Positions 46,228 to 64,000 of a stretch of 64,000 nt of DNA are shown here, piece after piece. Origin of the DNA: an uncultured Actinomycetota bacterium (GTDB taxonomy: Bacteria > Actinomycetota > Actinomycetes > CAVWCF01); NCBI GenBank assembly GCA_963753435.1, contig CAVWCF010000001.1, positions 1,504,001-1,568,000 on the forward strand. Direction: 5' to 3'. The notes beneath the pieces were generated by a model. It searched no databases, was not told the DNA's origin, and worked only from the letters and a program-made list of their open reading frames with translations. How positions within the stretch are numbered: the stretch's first letter is position 1; each line of letters starts with the position of its first letter. Position numbers and translations under genes: made by a program.

Positions 46228-47031
46228 ATGCGACGCAGGCTCGGCGTCGGGCTGGCCCTGGCGGGGCTGCTCGGGGGCGGACTCGTTGCTGCCCAGGTCG
46301 CCGGGGCGGCACTCCAGCCGGCTGACTTCGCCAAGCCGATCGGGTTCTACCGATTCTGCGCCGACGCTCAACTCCAGATCGCTCAGATCGACGAGGCGGC
46401 GCTGAGCAACGCTGGTCTTTCGATCGGTGGGGAGTTCTATGAGGAATTCGACGCTTTCGTGCTCTCCAAGTCTGGAGCAGACCCAAATAGCGGCGCCATC
46501 CTGACCACCTCGTTCGTTGAATACGCGGATGCCGGCAAGACGCAGCCGAAGCAGTTCCGCTGCAAGATGCGGACATCGGAGAGCCTCACCGCCGGCGCGT
46601 GGCCGCCGGGCTCGTCGAACAACAGCCGGGGTATCGAGCGGCCGGAGTACTTCGGCTTCGGTTCGGTCGGCAGCTGGGGTATCTGGCGGGAACCGGCGAC
46701 GTGCCGTGACATCAACCAGAACACGATCGACTGGGGTCTGGTCCGAGCTCTCGCCGACAGATCAGGCGGAACGCGCAGTTCTCGCCGCTAGGAACGTCAC
46801 CCGACCCTCGTCAGCGGACCCCAGACGTGACAGTCGTTGGCGGGGCCCAATGGGTATCCAGTTTCCCGACGCTCACTGTTGAGGACGGCTGCCGTACTCG
46901 AGGTGCCGAGCAAGGCCCTGTACGTCCCGACCGGCCTCGCGGGTACAGCCGCCTGGGAGGGCGCGCACTACTGCACCTTGGTCGCCCCTGACCACCTGCG
47001 GAATGTCCTACTCGGGCTGGCCACGCCATGA
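46228..47031 (+). CDS. Secreted paralog of the preceding protein, frameshifted about 46735-46890
   Basis: FCADAQ, FDAFVLSKSG, KQFRCKMRT, GAWP, SKALY, GAHYCT; stop overlaps the next ATG. Confidence 0.68.
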
Positions 47032-48245
47032 ACTTGTGGAGCCGTCTTGCCCGGGTGTTGGTAGCGGGAGCCGTTGCCGCTGTTTCGCTAGTCGCGCTGG
47101 CCGCACCGGCCGAAGCGCGCGCCCAGAACTTCACTGTTGACTACGACTGTCGGCCGACCCTGTTCGGCATCCAGTACGTCCCCGCGGCACCGCAATCGTT
47201 CACTGTGAACGTTTCGGTTCCCGACACCGTGGTCGCCGGGGATCCCATCGCAATCGACTTCGACATCACCGGCACGCCAACCAACGGCCCGATCGCACTC
47301 GGAAACGTTGTGACCGAGTTCCAACCGACGGTAGTGGTGACACGAGCCGGTTCGCCGTTCGCGATCGGCTCGGGAACCGGACCGGCGAGTGCACCCACGA
47401 GCGTCCCCGCCTACGGCGCCTTTCCGCTGGTCGACCCAGTGACCCTCTCCGCCCCCACGTTCGGTGCGGGCGGGGGTGACCGGTTGGTGATCCGTCCCGG
47501 TGACTTCACTCTGTCGATCGTTTCCGGCGACGATTCCATCGCAGGTGGCTACGTCTCGTGTTCACTCGTCAATGAGCCGAGCGCCTCTACGTTCGTAGAC
47601 GTCACCGGGGCACCTGTGGCTGACACGCCTTACAAGTGCACCGCGGAACAAGGCAACACGTCCGGCAACGGTTGTGACACAACTCAGTCGGTCGTTTTCG
47701 ACCTACTTGAGGGCAATCTCACCCAGCTCGCGGTGAAGACCGGAACCAACCCGGACGCGACGCTCGTGGACCTCGGGTCGATCACCACCCCGTTTGTAAG
47801 CAGCACCCTGACTGGTGATCTGAACACAATCCAGGTCCAGGACAACCGCGGCGGCAGCTTCGGTTGGAGCCTGAGCGCCACCATGACGGACTTCGCCGCA
47901 GTCGGCGGCGCCACCATGGACAACGGCCAGTTGGTTGTCGCCCCGAGTTGCACTGACGCCAGCACTATCTACGACTACACGGCCTACGTGGACTCCACTT
48001 TGATTCCGCCGGTTCTTGGACCTGTGAGCGCCGCATCGCAGGCGCCGGGCATCGCGGCCGGCACCGCCGGGCAGGATCTTGGCGGCACGGTCACTCTTTG
48101 CACCAAGAACACCGACACCAATGCCACAACACAGAGCAGCGGCGGTGTGTATGACGTTGCTGTCCCATTGACACTCACCGTCCCGGCGTTCCAGTCAGCC
48201 GACACGGACTACACGGCAACGATGACCATCACCCTGGTCGGCTGA
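47028..48245 (+). CDS. Secreted surface protein with C-terminal WxL-like domain
   Basis: Signal peptide (AEA); VQDNRGGSFGWSLSATMTDF and terminal YTATMTITL. Confidence 0.75.
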   Translation: MNLWSRLARVLVAGAVAAVSLVALAAPAEARAQNFTVDYDCRPTLFGIQYVPAAPQSFTVNVSVPDTVVAGDPIAIDFDITGTPTNGPIALGNVVTEFQPTVVVTRAGSPFAIGSGTGPASAPTSVPAYGAFPLVDPVTLSAPTFGAGGGDRLVIRPGDFTLSIVSGDDSIAGGYVSCSLVNEPSASTFVDVTGAPVADTPYKCTAEQGNTSGNGCDTTQSVVFDLLEGNLTQLAVKTGTNPDATLVDLGSITTPFVSSTLTGDLNTIQVQDNRGGSFGWSLSATMTDFAAVGGATMDNGQLVVAPSCTDASTIYDYTAYVDSTLIPPVLGPVSAASQAPGIAAGTAGQDLGGTVTLCTKNTDTNATTQSSGGVYDVAVPLTLTVPAFQSADTDYTATMTITLVG

Positions 48246-49200
48246 CCTCCCGCGAGGTCTCGGCAAGGTAGACGCCCGCGATCACTATCGCGGCTCCGGC
48301 GATCTGACCAGGTTCAAGGGATTCCCCGAGCACGATCCAGGCCGCCGCGAACGCAAGTACGGGCTCCAGCATCCCCAGGGCCGAGGCCCCGGTAGCCGAC
48401 AAGTGCCGCAGCGAACCGACAACTAGCAAGAACGGCGCGATGGTGCCAAGCAGGACCATCCAGATCGCCAAGGTCCAAACCGGCACGGAGTCCAGGCCAC
48501 CCAGAGTCGCCACCTCACCCATCACCGACCAGGGGAATTCCCACCACGGGGTGACGACGGCCAAGACCAGCGAAGCGACTCCGAACCCGTAGCAGGTGAG
48601 CACTACCGGATCTCGGCGCTCGGTGACAGTGAGCCGTTCCCCAAGTAGGAAGTACACGGCCAGCGATATGGCGGCAGCGAACCCGGCCACTACGCCCAAC
48701 CGGTTCAGGCCCCCTCCGGATTGCCAAACCTGCGCCACCAGCGACAACCCGAACAGGGCCAGCGCCAGCGCTGCCCAGAACCTGGCGCGGATTGGACGGT
48801 GCTGACCGAAGCGCACCCAGAGCGCGATGAAGATCGGTGCGGTGAACTCAAGCAGAAGTCCGACCCCCACGGGCAACTCGCGGATCGCGACGAAGTAGAA
48901 GGCCTGGACGAATGCGAAGCCGATGATTCCGTAGACCGCCAGCAGGGGCAGGTCTCGCCTCGACACCTGCAGTTTGGCCCGGGCGGTTAGGAGCAGAAAG
49001 CCGAGGATGGCGACGAACGCTCCGAGGGAGCGCAGTTGGGTCAGTTGTATGGCAGGAACCCCAGCCAACAGGATCGGCTTGGAGACGACACCGTTGACCG
49101 CGAAGAGGATTGCCCCCGCTACCACCATGACGACGCCCCGCCGGCGGTTGGGGTGCGCGGAAGTGGGTTCGCCTCCGGGGACCACGACCGCGTCAGTCAC
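48229..49200 (-). CDS. EamA/DMT transporter
   Basis: About 10 TM helices, LPVGVGLLLEFTAP, LEPV. Confidence 0.9.
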   Translation of the reverse strand: MTDAVVVPGGEPTSAHPNRRRGVVMVVAGAILFAVNGVVSKPILLAGVPAIQLTQLRSLGAFVAILGFLLLTARAKLQVSRRDLPLLAVYGIIGFAFVQAFYFVAIRELPVGVGLLLEFTAPIFIALWVRFGQHRPIRARFWAALALALFGLSLVAQVWQSGGGLNRLGVVAGFAAAISLAVYFLLGERLTVTERRDPVVLTCYGFGVASLVLAVVTPWWEFPWSVMGEVATLGGLDSVPVWTLAIWMVLLGTIAPFLLVVGSLRHLSATGASALGMLEPVLAFAAAWIVLGESLEPGQIAGAAIVIAGVYLAETSREVSRPG

Positions 49201-49269
49201 GGTCGGACGCTAACGGCGCCCCGGTTGTTGCGGTGCTGTCTTCAGCGGCCGAGTTCTGGCACGCTGCCG

Positions 49270-50313
49270 CTACGGCTGGTTCGACTCACGCTGGGGTACG
49301 ACGCCGCCGACCACGATGAGTGGATCTTGCGCGGCACCATTCGGAGTGCCTGCTCCTGCTGGCCCGATCAGGTCCAAGACCGTGGCGGTTCCGAAGTCTC
49401 GGGGTGGAACGACCAGGTCCTCGATACGCCGGCTCAACGGGTCCTCGGGGGCAGCTGCCTCGGGCTTGCGCCGCCAGAGCCCCAGGAGCGGGATCTGGAT
49501 CAGCAGCCATCCGATCACGATTAACGCCCACGGGTAGGACGACGTCGTGGATGTAGCCGAGGTGGGCTCGTCCAGCCCGGCAAATGAGGTGAGCACCGTC
49601 AATCTTCCGAAGGTGAACGCCGGGAACTCGATGGGTATTTGTGCTGTCACCGTCTGGCCGGGCGCGATGAGGCCGAGGTCGGGTCGTGCGACGACGTCGG
49701 TCGGGTCGTCGCCGGTTCCGGCCGTGACCCGCACATCCGGGTTCTCAAGAGTGGTCGAACCAGTGTTGGTCACTTCTAGGTCAAGGGTTCGTTCGGCTCC
49801 CGCGCCGAACCAGGAGGTAATCGGACCGATCCCGCTGAGCGACTGCTTTGCCTCAACCGATCGAGTAGTGATTTGCAGGGTCGGCTGGGCGGTCTCCGCG
49901 CCAATCACCTCGAACGGGACATCGTTGGCGTCGTTGTTCTCCGGACTGGACACGTGGACAACGCAGGGGCAGGGCTTGGGCGGAATGCCGACGACGATCT
50001 GAGTTGAGAACGTTCCCTCCGGCGTCACCACTGTGGTGTTGGCTCGGGTGGGGTCGCAGTCGCCGATTCCGCCTAGGAACAGGTTCCCGCAAAGGACAGC
50101 CTGCACCTGGACGCCTGGTTCCCAACCGGAGCCAGTTACTCGCACTGGCGTGCCGGGCTCGCCCAATGGCGGTGAGGCGACTGCGGACAGGCTCTCGTCT
50201 CGAGGTGCGCTCGGTTCGTCTTCTGCCCGCGCAACGCCCGCCGGGCCCACCACGGCGGCGCACAGCGCTGCCGCGGCGAGTCCGCCGGCGAGGCGACGCG
50301 AGCGTCGGCTCAT
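49270..50313 (-). CDS. Secreted protein with neocarzinostatin-like Ig domain, CARDB-like domain and C-terminal TM
   Basis: VTGSGW, VLCG...DC, PPKPCPCVV, VTNTG, IAPGQT, PW-TM-RRK. Confidence 0.7.
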   Translation of the reverse strand: MSRRSRRLAGGLAAAALCAAVVGPAGVARAEDEPSAPRDESLSAVASPPLGEPGTPVRVTGSGWEPGVQVQAVLCGNLFLGGIGDCDPTRANTTVVTPEGTFSTQIVVGIPPKPCPCVVHVSSPENNDANDVPFEVIGAETAQPTLQITTRSVEAKQSLSGIGPITSWFGAGAERTLDLEVTNTGSTTLENPDVRVTAGTGDDPTDVVARPDLGLIAPGQTVTAQIPIEFPAFTFGRLTVLTSFAGLDEPTSATSTTSSYPWALIVIGWLLIQIPLLGLWRRKPEAAAPEDPLSRRIEDLVVPPRDFGTATVLDLIGPAGAGTPNGAAQDPLIVVGGVVPQRESNQP

Positions 50314-51344
50314 GACGCGGGCGTATCCGCGACGTATCGACGACGAACTGTTGCGTCGTCATTCTCGATCTCAGCCGGACGCTGTGACCGCATCCGTCGC
50401 CAGATGGCGTAGCCAATGAGTGCCAACAGGATCAGCGCGAGGATCAGCCAGGGAACGAACCAGACACTCTTGTCCGCTCGTGCTGACTGGTCTTCCCCGT
50501 AGGTCAGATCTACCGCGACCGTGACTCGGTCGATGAACGGCGGGTTGTCCCAAATCTCCTGCAGGGTGACCGACTCCCCGGGCAGGATCTCGACCGTCGG
50601 GCGTTCGACCTGGAGCAGTTCGCGTCCGAAGAGGCCTGTCGCTGCCACGTTTGCGGTAGGCCGCTGTCGGGTGTTTCCGACGTTGGAGACCGTGTACTCG
50701 ATTACGACGCGCTCAGGGGCGGTGACACCGAAGATGCCACCTTCCTTCTTGACCTCCAGGGACGTGATCTGGAGCTCCGACGTCAGCGGCCCGTTTACGC
50801 GCGCGTATAGCCGGACCCCGACCGCGTTCTGCACGCGGAGTTGTGCGCCGTCCGGCGCCTGGCCGGCTTCCGGTACTGGGTTCAGCGTCACGATTCCGCC
50901 GACGTGGTCACCGGGGGTGGCGTTGTCGGGAACAACCATCGTGAAGGGCACATCCACGGACGCGTCCGGTTCGAGGGTTACCTCGGACTCGCTCATGGTG
51001 ATCCACGAACCCACGTCAGTGTTCTCTACGTCGATCCCGTTGATCGCGTACGCGCCCCCGCCGGTCGCGTTGTAGGCATCGCCGGCCCAAGTCTGGAGGC
51101 GCAGGATGGCCTGCGACTTGTTGGTGATGGTGACCGAGTCCTCAATGGTGGCCCCCGGCGCGACCTCGTAGTTGAAGAACTCCCGGCTGGTCGCTGTTCC
51201 CTCACCGGTCGAGGTTGGGCTTACATCCCAGGTCCCGTTATCCACGGCCTGAGCCGACCCCGGTACCAGGAGCAGGCCTCCGGCCAGGGCGACCGTGCTG
51301 GCGAAGACGGCAGATGTCCGTCGGAGCATGGTGCGCGAAATCAT
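50310..51344 (-). CDS. WxL-interacting protein (DUF916/WxLIP-like)
   Basis: FNYEVAPGATIEDSVTITN, VGSWI, VPDNATPGDHVGGIV, VGVRLY, NVGN, ILPGES, PW-TM-RR. Confidence 0.85.
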   Translation of the reverse strand: MISRTMLRRTSAVFASTVALAGGLLLVPGSAQAVDNGTWDVSPTSTGEGTATSREFFNYEVAPGATIEDSVTITNKSQAILRLQTWAGDAYNATGGGAYAINGIDVENTDVGSWITMSESEVTLEPDASVDVPFTMVVPDNATPGDHVGGIVTLNPVPEAGQAPDGAQLRVQNAVGVRLYARVNGPLTSELQITSLEVKKEGGIFGVTAPERVVIEYTVSNVGNTRQRPTANVAATGLFGRELLQVERPTVEILPGESVTLQEIWDNPPFIDRVTVAVDLTYGEDQSARADKSVWFVPWLILALILLALIGYAIWRRMRSQRPAEIENDDATVRRRYVADTPAS

Positions 51345-51570: not shown

Positions 51571-52963
51571 ATGGGGACCAGCATGCGCTCGCGACGGGCG
51601 CTTCCGGCGATTTTGGCTGCCAGCGCACTCGCTCTGAGCGGCTGTATTGGCGCGGCCAGCGCCGACGGTGTCTTCACCAACGTCAACGGTGGTGGCGACG
51701 GCAACTCCAACGGCGGTGCAGTTGCCGCGCCTGGGGTCACCGACAGTTCGGTCAAGCTCGTCTACATCGAGAACCAGCTAGGTGCCCTCGCCGACCAACT
51801 GGGCTTCATCCAGCCGGACCGCGGCGACCCGGTCGCACAGTTCGAAGCGATGGTCGCCTGGGCGAATGAGAACGGCGGCATCGCCGGCCGTCAGATCGAG
51901 CCGGTCGTCAAGCCGTACATCGCGTCCACCGACTCGCCCGAGGCCGTCGACGCCCTGTGCAACGCGATCACGCAGGACGAGCAGGCGTTCGCCGTCATCC
52001 TCAACGGCCAACTGCAGCCCAACGCCCGCCCCTGCTACGCCAAGCGCTCCACGCTCATGCTTGAGGGCGGCGTCATCCCGATGGACACCCAGGGCTTCGC
52101 CGACCTCGCACCGTTCTACTGGGCGCCGAGCCTGCCGGAGTACGACGAGTACCTGACCGGGCTCCTGCAAGAACTCGAAGCGAACGGCTTCTTCGAAGGC
52201 TCGGCGGGCGTGGGTCTGGTCGCCAACGATGACCCAGTCGTGGACCGGGTCACCGAAGAAATCGTCAAGCCGAAATTGGCCGAACTCGGCTTCGACAACC
52301 CGCCCGTCTACAGCATCGACCCGTCCAACGTCGGCAACATCAACAAGAGCCTCGAGCAGGCCGTGGTCGGCTTGATCAGCGCCGGCGCGGACCGGGTCCT
52401 CTTCCTCGGTGACAGCCGTCTCGGCCCCTTCTACATCACGATCGCCGACATCCAGCAGTACAACGGCCGCCTGGCTATCGGCTCCTACGACAGCCCGCGC
52501 TTCCTGGCCGACAACGGCACCCAGTCCCCGCCGCTGATCCCGCAGAAGTACCTGACCGACTCCCAGGGGATCAGCCTGCTTCCGGTCACCGACGTCCGCG
52601 ACGACCAACTGCCGTTCCCGGCCACCGAGGGCGAGCAGGAGTGCCTCGACATCTATAAGGCCAAGGGTCTTGAGTTCGCCGGCCGTGGCGAGGCGCAGTT
52701 CGCGTTCATCACCTGCGACCAGGTCCGCTTCCTCAAGGAAGCCGCAGACAAGGGCGGCGACGACCTGTCCGCCCGCAGTGTGGAGTCCGGGGCCTGGCAA
52801 CTCGGTGAGGACTTCAAGTCCGCAATCTCGCCGAAGTCGCGGTTCGAGGAAGGCCGCTACGCCGGCACCGTCGCCTACCGGAACCTGCGCTTCGACACAG
52901 GGCGCCGGCGCCTACGTCTACGACAGCCTCGACCTGCTCGACCTGCCGGAGGTCGAGTCGTGA
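51571..52963 (+). CDS. Type I periplasmic-binding-fold (LivJ-like) substrate-binding lipoprotein, apparent frameshift near 52900
   Basis: Lipobox LSGC, APGVTDSSVKL, NENGGIAGRQIEPV; alternate frame GAYVYDSLDLLDLPEVES ends at TGA 52963, overlapping the next GTG. Confidence 0.8.
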
Positions 52964-55824
52964 GCGAGGCGGGTCTCCCCGCTCATCTCGATTACGCCTC
53001 GCGCGTCGCCCTCGGGGTGACGGGCGAGCGCAGCGTTGCCGGCTACCTACGCGCCGCCGGCGCGCGCGGCCGGGCCCGCGTCACGAGCCTGTCCCGATTG
53101 TCATTCGCTGATGCCGCACCCACCGCTGCGGTGGTCCTGCTCGTCAGTGCGGCGGCCGAAGACCTTGGTCTGTCCGCCGGTCAGGTGGTCACCGCGCTGC
53201 TGATCGGCGGCCTCGGGCTGGTCGCCGGCGCCATCCTCGGAATCAATGTCGCCGACAGCGGACGTCGGCTGAAGGTCGCTGTGGCCGTCGGCACCAACGC
53301 CGGCATCCTCGCCATCCTCATTGCCCAACTCAGCGCCTTCTGGCTGCTGGCGGTGCTGTTCGCCGCCCGCGGCGTGCTGCTCGGATACGGACAAGCCGTC
53401 CAACGCCCCCTGGTGATGGACGTCGTCCCGCCGGAGGCGCGCATCCGCGCCTTCGCCCGCTGGCGTGGCGCCGCGATCTTTGCCGCCGCAGCCGCCGCCG
53501 GATCGGCGGCGTTGGTGCTTTCCGGACCGCAGTGGTCCTGGAGCACCGTCGTCACCTTCCTCGGCGCCCTGGCGATCGTGCTGGGCCTGGCCGTCGCCTT
53601 CGTCGACGACCCCGGGGCCGGGGGCCTGGAGCAGGATCGACTGCGCCGCGTAGTCACCGAGGAGGGCGCTCCCTCGGCCGTCATCAACGGTGCCGGGGCC
53701 TCATTCGGGGTGCTGGCGCGCACCCCCGCCGCCCGGATCTCGCTGTCCAGTTACGTCGGAGTGGGCGCGGCGACGCTGGCCCCGCTGCCAGTGGGCTTCT
53801 CCGTGGCTCAGGAACGTGGCTACACCGCCGGCTCGGCCCTCCTCGGCCTGGCCCTGGCGTACCTGGTGGCCGCGGGAGTGGTCGTCTTCGCCGCAGACGG
53901 ACTGGACGCGCGGCGGCAGGCCGGATGGGACCGGCTGGCCAAGGTCGTCCCGGTGCTACTCGCGGTGGCCGCCGTGGGCGTGATCGTCGCCGCATCTGTC
54001 GCGTCCCCGATCGCCGTCATCGTCGGCGTCGGCGTGGCCGCGGCCGCCGCCGGGCTCACCGCTGCATCTCTGGACGGGGTTGCACTTTCGGCCGTCTGGG
54101 CTTCGGACCGGCCGGGGGTCAGCGGGTACAGCACCATCTCGACACTCGCCGGCGGGCTCCTGGGTCTGGCTCTCGCTTACTGGCTTGGTGGCCCGGGCGG
54201 CTTTGCCGCGGTCGGTCTGTTGATCGCCCTGACGGCCGGCTTGTCGCTGCGGCTACCCAAGGCAGCCGCCGAATCGTTCGTCGACTCCCTGCGCGCCCTC
54301 GGGCTCGCCTACGAGAAGGTCTACGGGCCCGCGCTGAACCGGGTCGGCCCGCCGGAGTGGGCGACCAACAGCGCCGGCTTCACCCCGCCCGGATACGGCT
54401 GGGGTCCCACCGCGCTACCTGGTGGTGCGGCCTGGGCCGCTCAGACAGCGGGCGGCGTCGGCTACGCGGCGCCCGGTTACGGGACGCCCACCTACGCCGA
54501 TCAGCCCGTCGGTGGCTACCCGAGCCCGACCGCACCGGGGGACTACCCGCTTTACGCACCAGTCGACGGCGGGCTGTCCGGTGCCGGTGTCGCCGGCGCC
54601 GGAGCCGCCGCGGGCGCCGCACTGTGGGCGTCCGGTTGGAGCACCGACGGCGCCGACGCCCTGAGCAGCCCCACGATCCCGGGTGAGGCCACCCCGGCCG
54701 AACCGGCGGCGTGGACCCCCGGCGACGACCTGACCCAGCCCGCTAGCGCCTACCTCGGCGGGGCCGCGAACGCCCCCGAGGAGCCGGCCGAACCGACCTA
54801 CGTCCAGCCACAGTCGTGGACCCCGGTGTGGGAGTTCCTCCCGGCCGCACCGCTGGCGCTTGCCGCCGCGCCGGCGTCTACCAACGGACACGCTGCCGAT
54901 GCCCTGTCCGCACCCGCGGCGTTCACCCAGCCGAGCGCCACTCCTCAGGCCGCAGCAGCCGCGCCAGCTGCGGCCGCAGCAGTGGCCGCTGTGGCCGCCA
55001 CCACCGTCACCGAGCCCGCCCCGGCCCCGGCCGGCGGCGTCCCGACGTTGCACCACCCGGCCAACGGCGGCGTCCACATCCTGGAGGGACGCGGCGTTTC
55101 CTACTCCTACGGCTCGGTGCAGGTGCTGTTCGACGTCAACCTCTACGTGCAGCGCGGCGAGCTGGTGGCCCTGCTCGGACCGAACGGCGTCGGCAAGACC
55201 ACGTTGCTGCGCGTGCTGTCCGGCTTGGCGCGAGCAGACGAGGGCCAGGTCATCCTCGACGGCCAGGACGTTTCCCGCGTCCCCGCGTCCAAGCGGGTCG
55301 CCATGGGCCTCAGCGAGATCGTCGGTGGCGAGGCCGTCTTCGGGTCCATGACGGTCGCGGAGAACCTGCGGATGTACGGGTTCAGCATGGCCAAGGACAA
55401 GCAGTCCGTGGACGCCGGCATCCAGGCCGCCTATGACCAGTTCCCGCGGCTGGCGGACCGCCGCAACCAACTCGCCAGCACCCTGTCCGGTGGCGAGAAG
55501 CAGATGCTCGGCCTGTCCAAGGCGCTGATCGTCAAGCCGCAGATCCTCATGGTCGACGAGTTCTCCCTCGGTCTGGCCCCGGTCATCGTCGGGGAGCTGA
55601 TGGGCCTGGTCCGTCGCCTCAACGCCGAAGGCACCGCGGTGCTCCTGGTGGAGCAGTCGGTCAACGTCGCACTGTCGCTGGTGCACCGCGCCTACTTCAT
55701 GGAGAAGGGGCGCCTGGTGTTCGAAGGGCTGGCTGAGGAGTTGCGCGGCCGCCCCGACCTGGTCGCGGAGATCACCCTCGGCGGGCACGCCGATGCGCTG
55801 GCGAGCGCGGAGGCGGCGGCATGA
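52960..55824 (+). CDS. MFS-like membrane domain plus low-complexity linker plus LivF-like ABC ATPase fusion
   Basis: About 12 TM helices (PLVMDVVPPEARIRAFA); P/A/G/Y-rich linker; GPNGVGKT, LSGGE, MVDEFSLGLAP, VEQ. Confidence 0.8.
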   Translation: MSEAGLPAHLDYASRVALGVTGERSVAGYLRAAGARGRARVTSLSRLSFADAAPTAAVVLLVSAAAEDLGLSAGQVVTALLIGGLGLVAGAILGINVADSGRRLKVAVAVGTNAGILAILIAQLSAFWLLAVLFAARGVLLGYGQAVQRPLVMDVVPPEARIRAFARWRGAAIFAAAAAAGSAALVLSGPQWSWSTVVTFLGALAIVLGLAVAFVDDPGAGGLEQDRLRRVVTEEGAPSAVINGAGASFGVLARTPAARISLSSYVGVGAATLAPLPVGFSVAQERGYTAGSALLGLALAYLVAAGVVVFAADGLDARRQAGWDRLAKVVPVLLAVAAVGVIVAASVASPIAVIVGVGVAAAAAGLTAASLDGVALSAVWASDRPGVSGYSTISTLAGGLLGLALAYWLGGPGGFAAVGLLIALTAGLSLRLPKAAAESFVDSLRALGLAYEKVYGPALNRVGPPEWATNSAGFTPPGYGWGPTALPGGAAWAAQTAGGVGYAAPGYGTPTYADQPVGGYPSPTAPGDYPLYAPVDGGLSGAGVAGAGAAAGAALWASGWSTDGADALSSPTIPGEATPAEPAAWTPGDDLTQPASAYLGGAANAPEEPAEPTYVQPQSWTPVWEFLPAAPLALAAAPASTNGHAADALSAPAAFTQPSATPQAAAAAPAAAAAVAAVAATTVTEPAPAPAGGVPTLHHPANGGVHILEGRGVSYSYGSVQVLFDVNLYVQRGELVALLGPNGVGKTTLLRVLSGLARADEGQVILDGQDVSRVPASKRVAMGLSEIVGGEAVFGSMTVAENLRMYGFSMAKDKQSVDAGIQAAYDQFPRLADRRNQLASTLSGGEKQMLGLSKALIVKPQILMVDEFSLGLAPVIVGELMGLVRRLNAEGTAVLLVEQSVNVALSLVHRAYFMEKGRLVFEGLAEELRGRPDLVAEITLGGHADALASAEAAA

Positions 55825-58800
55825 ACACCGGGCTTGCGGCTGCCACCATCGCCGGCTTCGACCTGTCCGCCGGGCGGCTGCTGCTCGGCATCCTGAACGG
55901 TTTGATCTACGGGTTGCTCGCCGTCGGGCTGGTGCTGACCTACCGGGCCAGCCGGTTCATCAACTTCGCCTACGGCGGCATCGGCCTGTTCGGCGCGGCC
56001 ATCCTCGGTGTGACCGTGGGCAAGTTCGGCATCCCCTACTGGGTCGGCTTCGTCCTGGCACTGATCGCCGGTGCAGCGATCGCGGCGTTCACCGAAGCGG
56101 GGCTGGTCCGGCGGCTGGAGAAGGCGCCCCGCGTCCTCGGCACCATCGTCACGCTCGGCTTCGGCCAGTTCCTGGTGATCGTGGCGCTGCTGATCAACAA
56201 GGACAACTCCGGCGGCCGGTTCTTCCCGTCCCCGTCGGGGCTGCCGGAGTTCAAGGTCAGCGGGATCGTCATCTCCGCGCCCTTCGTGGCGATGCTCATC
56301 TTCACGCCGATCCTCATGGCCTCGCTGTCGGTGTTCCTCAAGCGCAGTCGCTACGGCCTGGCGATCCGCGCGGCCGCGGACAACCCCGATGCCGCGTCCC
56401 TGGCCGGTGTCACCGCATCGCGAATGGTCACGTTGTCGTGGGCCATCTCCGGCGGTATCGCGGCGTTCTCGGCCTCGCTGGTCCTGCCCACCCAGGGCAC
56501 GCCGTCGATCGAGACCATCGGCCCCACGCTGCTGCTGTTCGGTTTGGCCGGTGCGGTCATCGGTCGGCTGCAGAACATCCCGGTGGCGTTCCTGTCCAGC
56601 CTCGGCATCGGCGTGGTGGAGCAGGTCGTCCGCTCCAAGGACCCGACCAGTGGGCTGGCGGAGTTGGTGCTGGGTTCGATCATCATCCTGGCGCTGCTGC
56701 TGCAGCCGAAGCTGTCCACCCGGGTTGAGGTCAAGAGCGACTGGGCCCTCGTTACCCCGCGCCGACTGCCGAGCGCGTACCAGAAGGTGTTCCTGATCCG
56801 CTGGCTGCCGCGGTTGGCGCTGTACGGGGTGCTGGGCTACCTGGCCTACCTGGCGTTCGTGGTCAACAACGAGACCGCGTCCAAGCTGACCGTGTTCGTC
56901 GGCTACGCGATCATCGGCTTGTCCGTGCTGCTGGTCACCGGCCTCGGCGGACAGCTGTCGCTGGGCCAGGTGGCGTTCGCCAGCATCGGTGCGGTTGCCA
57001 GCGTCAAGGTCGCCGAAGCCACCGGCTACTTCGACCTGGCGCTGATCGCCGCCGCCTTCGTGGCCGCCGTGGTGGCGATCCTGGTCGGCATCCCGGCACT
57101 GCGGTTGTCCGGTCTGGCGTTGGCAGTGAGCACGCTGTCGTTCTCGCTGATAACCGCCACCTGGCTGTTGCGGCAGGACTGGGCCTTCGGCAACGGCGTC
57201 GACCCGTTGCGGCCGGTGATCGCCGGTCTGGGCTTCTTCAGCTCCAAGGGGTTCTACCTGTTCTCCGTTGGCGTGCTGGTGGTCGCGTTCTTCCTGGTGG
57301 GCAGCCTGCGCCGGTCCTCCTTCGGGCGGATCTCCATCGCGTTGCGTGACAACGAACAGGCCGCCCGCGCCTTCACCGTGCCGAGCAACCGCCGCCGGTT
57401 GCAGCTCTATGGCGCGGCCGGTGCCATCGCCGGCCTCGGTGGCGCGGTCATCGGCCACGGCCAGTCGAACCTGACGTTCGCGGCCTTCCCGGCCCAGGCG
57501 AACATCGACGTGGTCGCCGAAGCGGTTGTCGGTGGTCTGACCGTGCTGATCGGCCCGGTCCTGGGTGCTCTCTACATCGTGGGCCTGCCGTCGCTGCTGA
57601 GCCTGAGCACCATCGGGATCGCGATCCTGACGCTCGGCTGGCTGGTTCTGATCATCCTCATTCCGACTGGAATCGGCGGGGTGCTGCTGAACCTCTGGGG
57701 CAGCCTCGCCGATGGCATCGCCCGGCTGCGGGGGATCAACCCGGCGGTGGCGCGGGCGGCCGACGCCGGCGGCGCGCTGGAACGATCCGCAGAATCCCTG
57801 GACCTCACCCATTTCCGCCGCGCGGACCTGGCTCCGGCGGGGACCAACGGGTCGGGTCCCGCCGGTCAACCGGCCGCCGAGCAGATCCCCGGCGCCCCGA
57901 GCGCGGAGACCGTGGTCCCGGGCGGGCAGTGGATGCCGCCGTCGGCCCAGACCGGTCAGGCCCTGCCCATGGGCGTGGAGTACCCGCAGGTCTCGACCCA
58001 GCCGATGCCGCCGGTTGCCCAGCCGGTGCCGCAGCGCGCCGCCCCGGCAACGGTCCGCGAGGTGCAGTTGTCGGTGCGCAACATCAGCCGCTCCTTCGGC
58101 GGGGTGCGGGCCGTCGTCGACGTTTCGCTGGACGTCTACCGCGGCGAGATCCTCGGCATCATCGGCCCCAACGGTGCGGGCAAGACGACCTTCTTCGAGA
58201 TCCTCACCGGCTTCACCTCAGCCGATGCCGGCAACGTGGTCTTCGAGGGCCGCGACATCACCAAGTCCTCCCCGGAGCGGCGTGCCCGCGCGGGCCTGGT
58301 CCGGTCCTTCCAGTCCAGCGCCCTGTTCCCGACCCTCACCGTGCTGGAGACCGTGATGGTCGCCGAGGAGCGCACCGTCCCGACGGGGACGTTGGAGTCG
58401 GTGACGGGCATCAGCCGCAAGGAGGGCAAGCGGCGTGCGCGGTCAATGGAACTGCTGGACGTCATGGGGTTGCGCTCCCTGGCCTACCGGCAGGTGAGCG
58501 GGCTGTCCACCGGGCAGCGGCGCATGGTGGAACTGACCTGCATGCTGGCGCTGGAGCCGCGGACCCTGCTGCTGGACGAGCCGGCCGGTGGCCTGTCGAC
58601 GGCCGAGGGCGACCAACTCGTGGAGCTGTTCACTGCGATCCGACGCGACCTGGGCACGACGCTGGTAATCGTCGAGCACGACCTGCCGCTGCTGAACCGC
58701 ACCGTGGACCGCATGGTCGCCATGGAACTGGGCGCGATCATCGCCGTCGGCACCCCGGAGGAGGTGCGCAACCACCCCGATGTGGTCCGCTCCTACCTGG

Positions 58801-58850
58801 GCACCGAAGCCGCAGCGGTCGAGCGCAGCGGCTCCCTCACCCCCGCCTGA
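55821..58850 (+). CDS. LivH-LivM-LivG-like fused ABC permease/ATPase
   Basis: GLVLTYRASRFINFA, GLGGQLSLGQ, ALRDNE, GPNGAGKT, LLLDEP, VEHD. Confidence 0.9.
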   Translation: MNTGLAAATIAGFDLSAGRLLLGILNGLIYGLLAVGLVLTYRASRFINFAYGGIGLFGAAILGVTVGKFGIPYWVGFVLALIAGAAIAAFTEAGLVRRLEKAPRVLGTIVTLGFGQFLVIVALLINKDNSGGRFFPSPSGLPEFKVSGIVISAPFVAMLIFTPILMASLSVFLKRSRYGLAIRAAADNPDAASLAGVTASRMVTLSWAISGGIAAFSASLVLPTQGTPSIETIGPTLLLFGLAGAVIGRLQNIPVAFLSSLGIGVVEQVVRSKDPTSGLAELVLGSIIILALLLQPKLSTRVEVKSDWALVTPRRLPSAYQKVFLIRWLPRLALYGVLGYLAYLAFVVNNETASKLTVFVGYAIIGLSVLLVTGLGGQLSLGQVAFASIGAVASVKVAEATGYFDLALIAAAFVAAVVAILVGIPALRLSGLALAVSTLSFSLITATWLLRQDWAFGNGVDPLRPVIAGLGFFSSKGFYLFSVGVLVVAFFLVGSLRRSSFGRISIALRDNEQAARAFTVPSNRRRLQLYGAAGAIAGLGGAVIGHGQSNLTFAAFPAQANIDVVAEAVVGGLTVLIGPVLGALYIVGLPSLLSLSTIGIAILTLGWLVLIILIPTGIGGVLLNLWGSLADGIARLRGINPAVARAADAGGALERSAESLDLTHFRRADLAPAGTNGSGPAGQPAAEQIPGAPSAETVVPGGQWMPPSAQTGQALPMGVEYPQVSTQPMPPVAQPVPQRAAPATVREVQLSVRNISRSFGGVRAVVDVSLDVYRGEILGIIGPNGAGKTTFFEILTGFTSADAGNVVFEGRDITKSSPERRARAGLVRSFQSSALFPTLTVLETVMVAEERTVPTGTLESVTGISRKEGKRRARSMELLDVMGLRSLAYRQVSGLSTGQRRMVELTCMLALEPRTLLLDEPAGGLSTAEGDQLVELFTAIRRDLGTTLVIVEHDLPLLNRTVDRMVAMELGAIIAVGTPEEVRNHPDVVRSYLGTEAAAVERSGSLTPA

Positions 58851-59860: not shown

Positions 59861-60607
59861 TCAGAACTCCTCGAACATCCGCCCGAAGCCGTACAACTTG
59901 TCCTGGATGCCGTTGTCGCGCAGGGCCATCCACCAGGTCGCCGCGTTGATCGCGATGACCGGCTTGTGCAGCCACCGCTCCGCCTCGGCGGCCAGGCGCA
60001 GCATCGACAGGTTGGTGCCGACCTGAACGAGCGCGTCCGGCTCGGTGCGGTCCAACTCCAGCAGTGACTCACGCAACTGGTCCTGGGTGGTGTGCGCGAT
60101 CGAAACCGCGGTCGGGCGCTTGAGCCCGATCAGCTTCGTCACGTCGAACCCGAGCTCGTTGAAGAACTTGATGACCTGCTCGTCGCCGTTGGGCTGGTAG
60201 GGGGTCACCACGCCGATGGTCTTGACCCCGAACTTGTGCAGGACGCGTTCGCAGGCCTCCGCACCGGTGGCAACGTCCAGGCCGCCGGAACGATCCTTGA
60301 TCCGCTGCTTGAACGCCTCGTTGCCGGCTTTGCCGTCCCAGAAGGTCTCCGCCGACATGCCCATGACCATGTAGTCGACCTCGGCCGTGCAAACACGGTC
60401 GATCGCGGAGTCGATCTCCTGGTCCAGCTGAACGCGCAGGTACTCCATCTGCGACTCAGAACTCAGGTCCTGGTCGCGGATGTGGATGCGGCTGAACAGC
60501 GGTGTCACACCGGGAACGCCCATCGCGTTGAAGTCCGGCTCCACGATGCTGTTGGTGCTCGGCGCCAAGACTCCGAACTTCTTGCGCCACGCCAACTGGT
60601 CGCCCAT
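59861..60607 (-). CDS. Maleate isomerase/arylmalonate decarboxylase (Asp/Glu racemase superfamily)-like protein
   Basis: GVLAPSTNSIVEPDF, IGVVTPY, VQVGTNL, KPVIAINAATWWMALR. Confidence 0.85.
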   Translation of the reverse strand: MGDQLAWRKKFGVLAPSTNSIVEPDFNAMGVPGVTPLFSRIHIRDQDLSSESQMEYLRVQLDQEIDSAIDRVCTAEVDYMVMGMSAETFWDGKAGNEAFKQRIKDRSGGLDVATGAEACERVLHKFGVKTIGVVTPYQPNGDEQVIKFFNELGFDVTKLIGLKRPTAVSIAHTTQDQLRESLLELDRTEPDALVQVGTNLSMLRLAAEAERWLHKPVIAINAATWWMALRDNGIQDKLYGFGRMFEEF

Positions 60608-61266
60608 CAGGTCCCCTCCATCACCAACTCAGAGGATGCGCGGACCTTCCGCCACACCCGCCACGCCCCGAACGCGAAAGCGCCTTGAGCGACGGTGTTC
60701 ACGCTCTGCTCCGTCCACTGCAGCGCGAGGGTCTGCTCCTCGAAACTCTGCAGCCGGGTCAGCACGAACACACCGGCCAACTGAACAGCGAAGGCCACAA
60801 CTGCGGCAGGGTCCTTGGTCCGTACTGCCCAGGTAATCGCGAGGATGGTCGTGGTGAGGCTGGCCAGGACGGCGATTCCAAACAGCGGGACGACGTCGCC
60901 GATGGCGAATGCGCCGATCGTCGCCACCGCCAGTACCGCGGCGAACGGCCACCAGGGCAGCAACTTCGAACGCAGCCCGGACCAGACCGCCCACGCCACC
61001 AACGTGAACCCGAAGGACAGCAGTGGGAACAGGAACTCGTCGATGATCGTGTCCGGCCCGCCGGACGCCACGATCAGCTTCCAGGTGGCCTTGGAGGCCC
61101 CGCCGGCCACCAACAGCACCACGCCCAGGTAGCCGACTCGGGCGACCTCGGGTACCCGGCTGATCGCCGTGCGCACGAGTAGCAGGCAGCCCAGTCCGCT
61201 CAGCAGGACGGGGACGTAGTCCTCCAGCGCCAGCGGGATCGTGTAGCCGTACGGATTCGCGTCCAT
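60607..61266 (-). CDS. Uncharacterised 7-TM membrane protein
   Basis: Hydrophobic helices, KATWKL; TACCGT 6 nt before ATG; TGATG coupling to the next gene. Confidence 0.75.
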   Translation of the reverse strand: MDANPYGYTIPLALEDYVPVLLSGLGCLLLVRTAISRVPEVARVGYLGVVLLVAGGASKATWKLIVASGGPDTIIDEFLFPLLSFGFTLVAWAVWSGLRSKLLPWWPFAAVLAVATIGAFAIGDVVPLFGIAVLASLTTTILAITWAVRTKDPAAVVAFAVQLAGVFVLTRLQSFEEQTLALQWTEQSVNTVAQGAFAFGAWRVWRKVRASSELVMEGT

Positions 61267-61347: not shown

Positions 61348-62157
61348 TTACTGCGAGGAAGTGGGGACCTCGACGCCTTCGAACAGGTCGCGCTTCTTGA
61401 ACGCCGCCGTGGCGAACCGGCCGGCCGCCTTGGGGCCGGACAGCCAGGCCACCCGACCGCCGTTCTTGGTGCCCTTGAGCAGGCCATCGGCCAGCATCGG
61501 GGTCACCGTCTCGACCTTGTCGCCGAGGATGTTGAAGATGCGCTTGGCCTTCTCAAAGCCCTCCGGGTCATCGGCGTAGTCACCGACAAGCAGGTCGGTC
61601 ACCACGATCCCCGGGGACAAGTGGTGGATCGACACCGGGCCGCCGTCCAGCTCCTTGGCGACCGAGTTGGTGAAGTACGTCAACGCCCGCTTGGTCGAGC
61701 CGTAGGGGGCCAGCCCGTCGGCCTTCTGGCCGCCGGAGCCGAAGCCCTCCATGTTCCAGATGTCGCCGAAGCCCTGTTCCTTCATGCCCTTCAGCGCCAC
61801 GTGCGTGCCGTTCATGGCGCCGAGCAGGTTGATCCGCACGATCTTCTCGAAGTCGGCCGGGTCCGATTCCGCCAGCGGCTTGCGGGGCAGGCCGATGCCG
61901 GCGTTGTTCACCCAGGAGTCGACCTTGCCGAACGTCGCAACCGCGAAGTCCCACAGCGCCTGCTGGTCGGCGTAGGAGGACACCTCGCACGCCTTGCCGG
62001 CGACGTTCGGAGCCCCGCCGAGCTCAGCGACGACCTTGTCCACGGCCTCCTGCGAGCGGCCGGAGACGACCACCTGCGCGCCCCGCTTGAGCAGGTTCTG
62101 CGCGATGCCGTGGCCGATGCCGCGGGTGGAACCGGTGACGACGAAGACCTTGCTCAT
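61348..62157 (-). CDS. SDR oxidoreductase resembling chlorophyll(ide) b reductase NOL/NYC1
   Basis: TGSTRGIG, WVNNAG, KPLAE, WNMEGFGSGG, YGSTKR, HHLSPGIVVTDLL. Confidence 0.8.
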   Translation of the reverse strand: MSKVFVVTGSTRGIGHGIAQNLLKRGAQVVVSGRSQEAVDKVVAELGGAPNVAGKACEVSSYADQQALWDFAVATFGKVDSWVNNAGIGLPRKPLAESDPADFEKIVRINLLGAMNGTHVALKGMKEQGFGDIWNMEGFGSGGQKADGLAPYGSTKRALTYFTNSVAKELDGGPVSIHHLSPGIVVTDLLVGDYADDPEGFEKAKRIFNILGDKVETVTPMLADGLLKGTKNGGRVAWLSGPKAAGRFATAAFKKRDLFEGVEVPTSSQ

Positions 62158-62203
62158 GCGGCGTTCCCTTCGGTGAATCCGATCAGTGGCGCGATGCGCC
62201 GGT

Positions 62204-63175
62204 TCAGCCCTGCGGTTCCCAATTCAGCACACCGTGAATCACGTGGCGCAGGATGTTGCCCTCGAATGCCTGCCAGGTGACGGCGTACTGCTGGGTCTCC
62301 GGGTCCAGGAGGAACTCCCGGCCCTTGATCTTCCAGACGTCCGGGCCGGTGAAGTGCTGTGACACGTACAGCGCGCGGCCGTAGGCCTTGGCGTTGCCGA
62401 ACAGGTCCGGGCCCTCGTAGGTGGTGATGTTGGACCGGCGCGTGCGCTCGAAGGAGTAGCGGCGGCTCAGCAGCCCGTCCCAGGTGACCGTCTGGCGGTA
62501 GCGGGTCAGGTTGATCGGCTCATGAGCGATCTCGACCGAGATCGTGCCTTCCTGCTTCTGGTCGGCACCCCACACCTCAAGCTCGCCACGCCAGGAGCCA
62601 CGGTCCTTGGTCGGCAGCACCTGCGGGGTGTTGCCGATGCGCTTCTCCTTGTCGCAGAAGGCGTCGATGCGAGCCTTGGTCTCGGGGTTGGTCTCGTAGT
62701 CGTGGGCGACCAGGTAGATGCCGTTGAACACCGCGGCCACGGTCCAGCCGTCGGTGAGCACCGAGGAATACACCTGGGTCTCGCCGTCGGGGAGGATGTG
62801 GTTCCACGTCGTCAGGTCCGCCAGCCAACCGGTGGAGTAGTAGTGGCTGTCGACGAACGTGCCGTACGGCTGCCCGGTGCCGTAGAAGTCCGGGCCCATG
62901 TAGACGCGGTTGGAGTCGGAGTCGATGACGCCGAAGTCGAACTGTGCGCCCAACTCGAAACGGTTGCGGATGGGGCCAGTGACCTCGGACAGGTCGGTGC
63001 GCATCCAGTAGCGGGTCTCGCCGTTCTCGAACACCGAGGCGCGGGAGACGTTCTCGTAGCCGACGTGGTTGCCGTCAGGGTCGAAAACGCTCGGCCGCCC
63101 GTACCAGGATCCGGTGATCTTCTTCTGCCACTCCGACGGTTCCGGGGTCTCGGTGGTCTCCGGCGCTGCACTCAT
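62204..63175 (-). CDS. Uncharacterised protein with two repeated GxWxG beta-barrel-like halves
   Basis: GSWYG/GSWRG and YMGPDFYG..PYG/YEGPDLFG..AYG internal repeats; ATGA coupling to the upstream gene. Confidence 0.75.
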   Translation of the reverse strand: MSAAPETTETPEPSEWQKKITGSWYGRPSVFDPDGNHVGYENVSRASVFENGETRYWMRTDLSEVTGPIRNRFELGAQFDFGVIDSDSNRVYMGPDFYGTGQPYGTFVDSHYYSTGWLADLTTWNHILPDGETQVYSSVLTDGWTVAAVFNGIYLVAHDYETNPETKARIDAFCDKEKRIGNTPQVLPTKDRGSWRGELEVWGADQKQEGTISVEIAHEPINLTRYRQTVTWDGLLSRRYSFERTRRSNITTYEGPDLFGNAKAYGRALYVSQHFTGPDVWKIKGREFLLDPETQQYAVTWQAFEGNILRHVIHGVLNWEPQG

Positions 63176-63945
63176 GCTGATTGCTCCGTCAGTTCGTTCT
63201 TCTCAAGGTTGATGCGGTTCAACTCCGACGCCTCCGCGCCGACCAGCGGGATGATGTTGTTCCACACCGGGTCGACGTCGGCGTTGAAGATGAGGCCGCG
63301 GTTCTTCGCGTCGCGGTCCGGCAGGTCGGTGTCCGACACCTCGGCGAGCACCTCGTCCGACAGGCCGCCTTCGAGCAGGTTGAACCACTGGTCCAGGTAC
63401 GCGTTCACGTGCTCGTCCAGGTTGGCGTACGCCGTCGGCGTGGCCCGGTAGGCGCACATGTAGGGGCTCATGATGGAGCGCTGGCGTGGGTCGAGCTCGG
63501 CCTCGCTGATGCCCTCCATGGCCCGGACGGCCTTGTAGTTGGCCAGGATCGGCTCGTACACCTCGTCGATGTACTTCATGTGCGTGCCGATGTCGACGCG
63601 CGGGATGAAGTCCAGGTGGAAGGCGTGCGTGTCCAGGTCCAACCGCTCGACGGAGTCCAGCGTGAAGTGCGGGACGGCGGAGTCCGGCGCGGTGAACGCG
63701 AAGATCATGTGGCTGTCCAGGTCGATCACCCCGGGCACGGTGGCCTGGATGCCGGCGTAGACGACCTTCTTGACCGGTCCGTCGCCCATCCAGATCCGCA
63801 ACTCACCGACGGACTGACCGGATCGGCTGTTCACGAACGGAAGGAACGGTCCACCGTCTGCACCCTGCACCTCAGACACCTTGGACCGGCTCGTAAGCCG
63901 GTCCAAGGTTCGAAGGCAGAGCCCCTGCGCCAGGCGCTCGCCCAT
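63172..63945 (-). CDS. Red chlorophyll catabolite reductase / ferredoxin-dependent bilin reductase-like protein
   Basis: PHFTLD, LDFIPRVDI...YIDEVYE, RSIMSP, YLDQW, RDAKNR...DVDP; AAAGGAG RBS. Confidence 0.75.
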   Translation of the reverse strand: MGERLAQGLCLRTLDRLTSRSKVSEVQGADGGPFLPFVNSRSGQSVGELRIWMGDGPVKKVVYAGIQATVPGVIDLDSHMIFAFTAPDSAVPHFTLDSVERLDLDTHAFHLDFIPRVDIGTHMKYIDEVYEPILANYKAVRAMEGISEAELDPRQRSIMSPYMCAYRATPTAYANLDEHVNAYLDQWFNLLEGGLSDEVLAEVSDTDLPDRDAKNRGLIFNADVDPVWNNIIPLVGAEASELNRINLEKNELTEQSA

Positions 63946-64000
63946 GAAGTTCTCCTTTATGCCCCTGAGCCGACGCCCTCCGCGTCGTCCTCCGGAACAC

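Follow-up and report, generated by a model that had tools for sequence, protein, structure and literature searches.

What would a bacterium that appears not to photosynthesise do with genes resembling those of plant chlorophyll breakdown? The window analysed here, the whole stretch of 64,000 nucleotides taken from contig CAVWCF010000001.1 (C1) of an uncultured Actinomycetota bacterium (C1:1504001-1568000; coordinates below are window positions unless C1 is given), contains three co-oriented genes on the minus strand for which a preliminary description had proposed an operon for tetrapyrrole catabolism: an RCCR-like reductase (RCCR-A, 257 amino acids, 63172..63945), a tandem beta-barrel protein (323 amino acids, 62204..63175) and a short-chain dehydrogenase/reductase (SDR, 269 amino acids, 61348..62157). 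The ATGA overlap of the first two open reading frames (ORFs) at 63172-63175 and the 46-nt gap between barrel and SDR are as described. The three genes are the middle of an eight-gene run reaching beyond the window edge, in the order RCCR-like B (RCCR-B), alpha/beta hydrolase, Rieske oxygenase, RCCR-A, tandem barrel, SDR, membrane protein and decarboxylase-like protein. This run likely encodes the upper stages of an aerobic route on which tetrapyrroles, chlorophyll breakdown products foremost, are consumed. A probability of roughly 0.5 was assigned to aerobic catabolism of chlorophyll-derived tetrapyrroles, for which we infer each reaction from the folds, motifs and gene linkage observed, and we are fairly confident that the substrate is a tetrapyrrole of some kind.

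The fold of RCCR-A was assessed using an AlphaFold model (pLDDT 95.6), for which ranks 1-9 of the Foldseek search were occupied by AtRCCR (E 2e-12, TM 0.74), followed by PebA, HY2 and PcyA. This places it in the alpha-beta-alpha fold of RCCR and the ferredoxin-dependent bilin reductases (FDBRs), in agreement with what was first proposed from motifs. The other structural matches were PebB, PebS and coproporphyrinogen oxidase, the non-tetrapyrrole exception being two weak rows of a chloroplast motor complex. A sequence search of the PDB with RCCR-A yielded only three matches at E<=1, all of them AtRCCR and weak (E 0.8-0.9). The PHFTLD segment of RCCR-A pairs with plant PNFVVE, placing D97 on the plant Glu, and D225 reaches the plant Asp by way of the RCCR-B profile; acidic residues were thus found at both plant catalytic sites, as had been claimed, and both are invariant in 97/97 RCCR-A homologues. 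The plant acids are those that we take to be numbered Glu154 and Asp291. RCCR-B (270 amino acids, minus strand, C1:1570329-1571141) passes the gathering cut-off of the Pfam RCC_reductase family (46.8 bits), and its profile aligns with AtRCCR nearly end to end (E 2.5e-21, compared with 8.6e-8 for PebB and 6e-7 for HY2). RCCR-A and RCCR-B share approximately 21% identity in a short alignment. In a FastTree phylogeny built from 38 randomly drawn called members together with the copies of this genome, and containing no named plant sequences, they separate into two deep clades, both of which are retained. By analogy, the role predicted for RCCR-A and RCCR-B is the reduction of red chlorophyll catabolite (RCC) with ferredoxin.

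The genome has three further RCCR-like paralogues. Separately observed were a 547-amino-acid fusion (C1:1302701-1304341) in which an RCCR-A-like domain is joined to an NAD-dependent epimerase/extended SDR domain, which hints at NAD(P)H-linked electron supply, a lone RCCR-B paralogue (L085:8920-9774), a divergent RCCR-like gene that abuts a Rieske paralogue at C1:808567-810212 and five RCCR-A-family matches in G015, a genome of 1.4 Mb belonging to the same class.

The SDR was assigned to a small subfamily because only 260 of 109,832 matches among 50%-cluster representatives reach E 1e-30. Motifs were counted in the 20 full-length calls of 52 cluster members: N-x-E/D-G-x-GS-x-G was present in 17/20 cluster SDRs, 69/145 other rows and 0/7 generic SDRs of the genome, and YGxTK in 19/20 cluster SDRs and 0/7 of the generic ones. 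We take N-x-D/E-G-x-GS-x-G and YGxTK to be motifs of the NOL/NYC1 subfamily; the copy in the window carries N-x-E-G-x-GS-x-G and YxxxK. Among the NOL/NYC1-type features noted at the outset, the glycine-rich motif stood, and KPLAE proved only loosely kept (K in 10/20 cluster SDRs). Arg34 suggests the use of NADPH. Three unnamed proteins (P0390, P0423 and P0408) that are eukaryote-like and extended at the N-terminus, 36-43% identical to the SDR and within the best 150 of the 109,832 matches, look like NOL/NYC1 by their motifs. Kinship with NOL is plausible and 'NOL-like' is a fair label; membership of the family would be a further claim. The names obtained for the SDR from the ESM Atlas and from PDB matches were generic, among longer proteins the search found 36 SDR-MFS-type fusions (P0241-P0276) and no plant NYC1, and the motif had 0 matches in literature text. 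At E<=1e-35 the SDR was present in 1/81 cyanobacterial genomes, this being the seed genome that carries the cluster. A lone paralogue, 43% identical, stands elsewhere in the genome (L086:8801-9598), and a second SDR paralogue occurs in each of the 4 cluster-bearing genomes from two family samples and in 0/98 others.

The tandem barrel anticipated for the second gene was borne out by a model of two barrels (pLDDT 95.9) and an internal repeat of 27% over 63 amino acids. Its best structural matches are BFA1 and DUF3598 (Z 19.4), at an identity of just 6-15%; taken singly, the barrels match nitrobindin (Z 13), which binds haem, and the bilin lyases CpeS (Z 11.1) and CpeT (Z 10.2), as well as outer-membrane barrels (Z 14) and fatty-acid-binding proteins. 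There was no Pfam match for the barrel, in which H274 is kept in 118/119 homologues. It is likely a pigment carrier. Barrels like nitrobindin and the phycobiliprotein lyases, together with an FDBR fold that acts on bilins, would also suit a haem-derived or phycobilin-type substrate handled by the same logic, in which biliverdin, bilirubin or phycocyanobilin from dead algae would be cut and reduced by the Rieske and RCCR pair; a Rieske oxygenase that is not a PAO, SGR and chlorophyllase models that remain unmatched, and TonB receptors in 10 loci point in the same direction. This alternative is nevertheless somewhat unlikely, as both reductase families are nearer RCCR than PcyA, PebA, PebB or HY2, an esterase, an AMDase-type protein and an NOL-like SDR would suit ring E and the formyl group of chlorophyll better, and a search of the genome for haem oxygenase, the control of which worked, was negative.

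Conservation of the cluster was assessed across GTDB genomes. A single-sequence scan of genome contigs with RCCR-A gave no match and the alignment scan gave 507 relatives, the best 80 of which were used for the locus counts; many of these loci end early, and many come from related Nocardioides, so that they are not independent. The 80 loci span Actinomycetota, Chloroflexota, Gammaproteobacteria, Acidobacteriota, one deltaproteobacterium and one cyanobacterium, and contain the Rieske oxygenase in 56 cases, the barrel in 52, the SDR in 52, the arylmalonate decarboxylase (AMDase)-like protein in 52, the hydrolase in 42, RCCR-B in 42 and the membrane protein in 39. RCCR-A, barrel and SDR stand in this order in 37/66 loci with room (Actinomycetota, Chloroflexota and Acidobacteriota), which supports a conserved trio, and in Gammaproteobacteria the same genes are kept in rearranged order. 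The Rieske gene lies directly upstream of RCCR-A in 43/71 loci with room, and Rieske oxygenase, RCCR-B, hydrolase, barrel and SDR occur together in 31/52 full 20-kb loci. The distribution is patchy (3/40 relatives): in one family sample RCCR-A, barrel and SDR were present in the same 2/61 genomes, one being the seed genome, and in a gammaproteobacterial family sample RCCR-A, Rieske oxygenase and SDR were present in the same 2/41 genomes, again including the seed genome. Cultured carriers comprise Nocardioides dubius JCM 13008, N. soli DSM 105498 and strains of Mumia and Microbulbifer; among viral contigs, 0/18 candidate stretches held RCCR-A relatives. Two metagenome-assembled genomes (MAGs) labelled Bifidobacterium breve (L021 and L046) have loci near-identical to freshwater actinobacterial ones and are likely mislabelled. 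The cluster is a real and well-conserved system, which the early reading detected correctly and of which it misassigned some details.

The genes accompanying the core in these loci encode acyl-CoA-dehydrogenase-fold proteins (52 loci), aldehyde dehydrogenases (51), an FAD monooxygenase (42), a nitrilase-family amidase (31), an isochorismatase-family amidohydrolase (29), isocitrate-lyase-family (23) and HMG-CoA-lyase-like (21) proteins, and the TonB receptors mentioned above. In Microbulbifer elongatus, catabolic genes fill approximately 60 kb and include LeuCD, two PrpD, CoA transferases, a citrate-lyase-like protein and a MaoC-type enzyme. That the neighbours include amidases, flavin monooxygenases, aldehyde dehydrogenases and enzymes of branched acids suggests full catabolism, and the gene context favours a catabolic function over one of detoxification only. 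Were the cluster to serve detoxification only, phototoxic pheophorbide would be defused and the product exported with no use for growth, a function that the preprint 10.64898/2026.03.19.712979 ascribes to the plant PAO/RCCR pair and that is consistent with the MFS transporters within the cluster; given the amidases, aldehyde dehydrogenases, CoA transferases and lyases that accompany the core in many loci, and the island of approximately 60 kb around it in Microbulbifer, we consider this very improbable. The Microbulbifer island also has a HapK/RedY-like gene inside (L112:19526-19834) and a PucC-family transporter gene near its edge (L113:18941-19975), both from families that we take to be linked to pyrrole pigments.

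The prediction that the cluster would continue past the right edge of the window was correct, the Rieske oxygenase, hydrolase and RCCR-B genes being found there. The Rieske non-haem iron oxygenase (421 amino acids, minus strand; 3' end at 63957..64000, whole gene C1:1567957-1569222) has Rieske and VanA_C domains, and the Rieske cluster ligands (both Cys/His pairs) and the mononuclear iron ligands in N-x-x-D-x-x-H-x4-H...D are invariant in 29/29 members. Names from the ESM Atlas were generic, and the closest relatives of solved structure have saxitoxin, xanthines and dicamba as substrates. These relatives, the generic N-heterocycle enzymes among the lower genes, the HapK/RedY-like gene of Microbulbifer and the distance of RCCR-A from RCCR would fit catabolism of a non-tetrapyrrole N-heterocycle, such as prodiginine-type tripyrroles or indole and pyridine pigments, in which case the RCCR fold would have been recruited for a new substrate. 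However, the enzymes matching the RCCR-A fold all act on tetrapyrroles, and RCCR fold, pigment-type barrel and NOL-like SDR jointly point to the same class of compound, so that we hold this alternative to be unlikely. As a separate observation, the Rieske paralogue at C1:808567-810212 is without the Rieske cluster domain, keeps the mononuclear iron motif and would need a partner subunit for electrons, to which split oxygenases such as NdmC presumably offer a parallel; in a Leptolyngbyaceae MAG (L055:2538-6349), two tandem cluster-type Rieske genes precede RCCR-A, in addition to that genome's own PaO-domain proteins.

The alpha/beta hydrolase (minus strand, C1:1569275 to approximately C1:1570270) has a GHSAGG elbow and a complete catalytic triad, and matches PF12740, a family which we believe was formerly named Chlorophyllase2, only narrowly (32 bits against a cut-off of 28, residues 123-213 only). 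Downstream of the SDR, the genes of the membrane protein (219 amino acids, minus strand, 60607..61266), which is conserved, has at least five hydrophobic segments and is without a Pfam match, and of the arylmalonate decarboxylase/maleate isomerase superfamily protein (248 amino acids, minus strand, 59861..60607) share 1 nt. The AMDase-like family has Gly at the first site in 54/54 and Cys at the second in 40/54 sequences, an AMDase-type Gly/Cys pattern. Maleate cis-trans isomerase uses two catalytic cysteines; assignment of the gene as a maleate isomerase was dropped, the cysteine pair being missing.

The Rieske gene ends 11 nt before the start of RCCR-A, with the hydrolase and then RCCR-B genes further upstream, and from gene spacing we infer that the run is co-transcribed. 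A promoter and terminator scan returned 0 promoters and 3 terminators, which is chance level. RNA-library contigs from four estuary metatranscriptome runs gave short pieces across the cluster, the longest approximately 91-100% alike, which were not counted as expression on account of low depth and possible DNA carry-over. A likely lower pathway lies further upstream of RCCR-B, up to approximately C1:1586030, and comprises a nitrilase-family amidase, HMG-CoA-lyase-like genes, an MFS transporter, two aldehyde dehydrogenases, a second AMDase-like gene, a CoA transferase III, an acyl-CoA-dehydrogenase-fold gene, a flavin reductase fusion and a divergent IclR. FAD monooxygenase and isochorismatase-family amidohydrolase genes stand inside the cluster in other genomes; here, a satellite approximately 215 kb off (C1:1349831-1355539) has an isochorismatase-family amidohydrolase, an IclR and an FAD monooxygenase gene, and upstream of these an NfnAB/SudAB-like gene pair, a possible source of reduced ferredoxin. 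On the other side of the run, ABC/MFS transport genes on the plus strand (51571..58850) form a candidate uptake system, homologues of which were matched near the cluster in 21 and 18 related loci, generic ATPase matches counted in. Within this stretch, a 1417-amino-acid ORF (51571-55824) apparently joins a substrate-binding lipoprotein, an MFS transporter and an ABC ATPase; a frameshift may hide a stop here, because the homologues elsewhere are separate genes. Beside the transporter, genes for WxL and WxL-interacting surface proteins were observed (47028-51344); several actinobacterial loci have WxL-type homologues, and other loci a sortase, on the flanks of the cluster, and such proteins may serve to capture substrate on the surface of the cell.

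The genome is 2.17 Mb in size, 98% complete and approximately 68% GC, and the cluster proteins group in trees with those of Actinomycetes MAGs. No match to Photo_RC was obtained in this 98%-complete genome, in line with the first statement that photosynthesis genes were missing from the window, and a non-photosynthetic host is supported. A role in the biosynthesis of a bilin-like chromophore or secondary metabolite would be in keeping with the biosynthetic nature of FDBRs and with the pre-PcyA clusters of heterotrophs described in PMC10151467. There is hardly any likelihood of such a role: the genome search for haem oxygenase was negative, a scan of 47 neighbour representatives gave no gene of tetrapyrrole synthesis, and importers and catabolic enzymes predominate.

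Several results weigh against catabolism of chlorophyll-derived tetrapyrroles. RCCR-A reaches only 19.1 bits (E 8e-4) against Pfam RCC_reductase (PF06405), under the gathering cut-off of 24.9, its profile found no RCCR in the PDB at E<=1, and it is merely 16-18% identical to AtRCCR; in RCCR-B the first acid is gone, the site being Ala in 44/46 and Val in 2/46 sequences. A PAO-like Rieske oxygenase had been sought beyond the edge, and the part of this expectation that failed is the likeness to PAO: the PaO domain (PF08417) was detected in 0/29 cluster members and nowhere in the genome, the C-terminal HxxxCxxC was present in 0/49 cluster rows compared with 17/18 cyanobacterial PaO-domain proteins, and the cluster sequences form their own clade apart from PaO-domain proteins in a quick tree without plant rows. 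On these sequence features the enzyme is not a PAO, and by analogy it may work like one. The hydrolase had no match to the Chlorophyllase model PF07224, the AMDase-like copy in the window has Val instead of the catalytic Cys, and neither an HCAR-type FrhB domain (control worked) nor a Staygreen (SGR) domain (control matched nowhere) was found in the 98%-complete genome; the reading as a copy of the plant pathway is not supported. The suggested ferredoxin gene was not detected by motif scan in any of 82 loci, and RCCR-A and RCCR-B are both acidic (pI 4.6), which leaves a gap in the account of electron supply. P0390, P0423 and P0408 fall beside, not inside, the bacterial SDR clade in a FastTree phylogeny whose rows were chosen as SDR matches, with only 7 outgroup rows and no named plant sequences. 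Barrels of the kind found here bind many ligands, and to our knowledge BFA1 and DUF3598 are not pigment carriers. Two lower-pathway genes are broken in the assembly, the acyl-CoA-dehydrogenase-fold gene by a frameshift (C1:1582484-1583753) and the two-domain nitrilase gene by a split (C1:1572098-1574027), through either assembly error or decay. Finally, in 10.64898/2026.03.19.712979, only pheophytin and pheophorbide were seen and no ring opening.

If the cluster does serve catabolism of chlorophyll-derived tetrapyrroles, the substrate would be taken up by the ABC/MFS transporters, or by TonB receptors in Gram-negative carriers, after which the hydrolase would cut either the phytyl ester or the methyl ester of ring E and the acid product would be decarboxylated by the AMDase-like protein. 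The SDR would use NADPH to reduce a formyl or keto group, in the way that NOL acts on chlorophyll b, and the Rieske oxygenase would open the ring, or cut a linear product, at a methine bridge, thereby taking the role of PAO without orthology to it. The insoluble, phototoxic pigment would be held by the barrel, and RCCR-A (two acids) and RCCR-B (one acid) may reduce the linear product at different double bonds. The pyrroles would then be opened, with release of ammonia, by flavin monooxygenases, aldehyde dehydrogenases and amidases, and the branched acids would enter central metabolism by way of CoA transferases, HMG-CoA/citrate-type lyases, LeuCD, PrpD and isocitrate-lyase-family enzymes. A bolder version, which can be put forward only tentatively, is a full bacterial chlorophyll-mineralising route with ring opening by a non-PAO Rieske oxygenase, two RCCR clades, a pigment-carrying barrel and passage of pyrroles to central metabolism, in which the RCCR-B and SDR families would be the stock of plant RCCR and NOL/NYC1.

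Approximately a billion tonnes of chlorophyll are made yearly, as given in 10.64898/2026.03.19.712979, and bacterial enzymes that open and consume its ring are not established in the literature examined. The cluster supplies candidate genes for each step of bacterial chlorophyll breakdown and bears on the origin of plant RCCR and NOL; its presence in cultured strains makes the function testable by knockout and assay. In the literature searched, with few subscription papers in reach, the system is described only in that preprint, and passages of PMC3541173, PMC8621299, PMC13446030 and 10.1101/2021.08.23.457424 contain nothing on this cluster. Bacterial sequences related to RCCR serve only as an outgroup in PMC10151467, RCCR is present in streptophytes and not in chlorophytes (PMC9306834), and products of chlorophyll with one or two pyrroles are chemically known (PMC7318184).

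The closest published proposal, in 10.64898/2026.03.19.712979, is a prokaryotic 'SH-RCCR type' degradation of chlorophyll a, with structural homologues of RCCR, PAO, CLH and PPH in more than 400 prokaryotic genomes, the heterotrophs being led by Actinomycetota including Nocardioidaceae. According to the same text, Shewanella acanthi, which encodes RCCR-type homologues and has its top matches within approximately 11 kb, depletes chlorophyll a, more slowly in a hydrolase double mutant. This region is probably the cluster described here. The main text of the preprint contains none of the terms operon, gene cluster, neighbo-, synten-, NYC1 or chlorophyll b, and for its 'SH-RCCR type' it describes neither a second clade of RCCR nor a barrel, an SDR or a lower pathway. 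As prokaryotic chlorophyll breakdown with RCCR homologues and one region of approximately 11 kb has already been proposed there, the present cluster is a better-resolved variant and not a first sighting. The FDBRs (PcyA, PebA, PebB, HY2, PebS and pre-PcyA) share the fold (TM 0.6-0.7) and an Asp-Pro motif with RCCR-A, but are weaker matches than RCCR, and the cluster is without a haem oxygenase partner and stands in a catabolic context. The chlorophyll b reductases NYC1 and NOL resemble the SDR in its atypical motifs, which we take to be those of NOL, and through the unnamed eukaryote-like relatives; these relatives, however, lie beside the bacterial clade, and no HCAR-type partner was found. 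BFA1/DUF3598, nitrobindin and CpeS/CpeT are alike in two-barrel architecture or, at Z 10-13, in the single barrels, and differ in their low identity and in the missing Pfam match of the cluster barrel. With the plant PAO/phyllobilin pathway (PAO and RCCR/ACD2; PDB 2zxk and 3aga) the cluster shares the pairing of a Rieske oxygenase with an RCCR-fold reductase, both acids being present in RCCR-A, and an esterase and an NOL-like SDR adjoin the pair. It differs in having two deeply split RCCR-like proteins, a Rieske oxygenase outside the PaO family and neither an SGR gene (subject to the failed control) nor an HCAR-type gene found in the genome, whereas it adds a tandem barrel, a membrane protein and an AMDase-like protein and is clustered, in a heterotroph, with a lower pathway that suggests use of the pigment as food.

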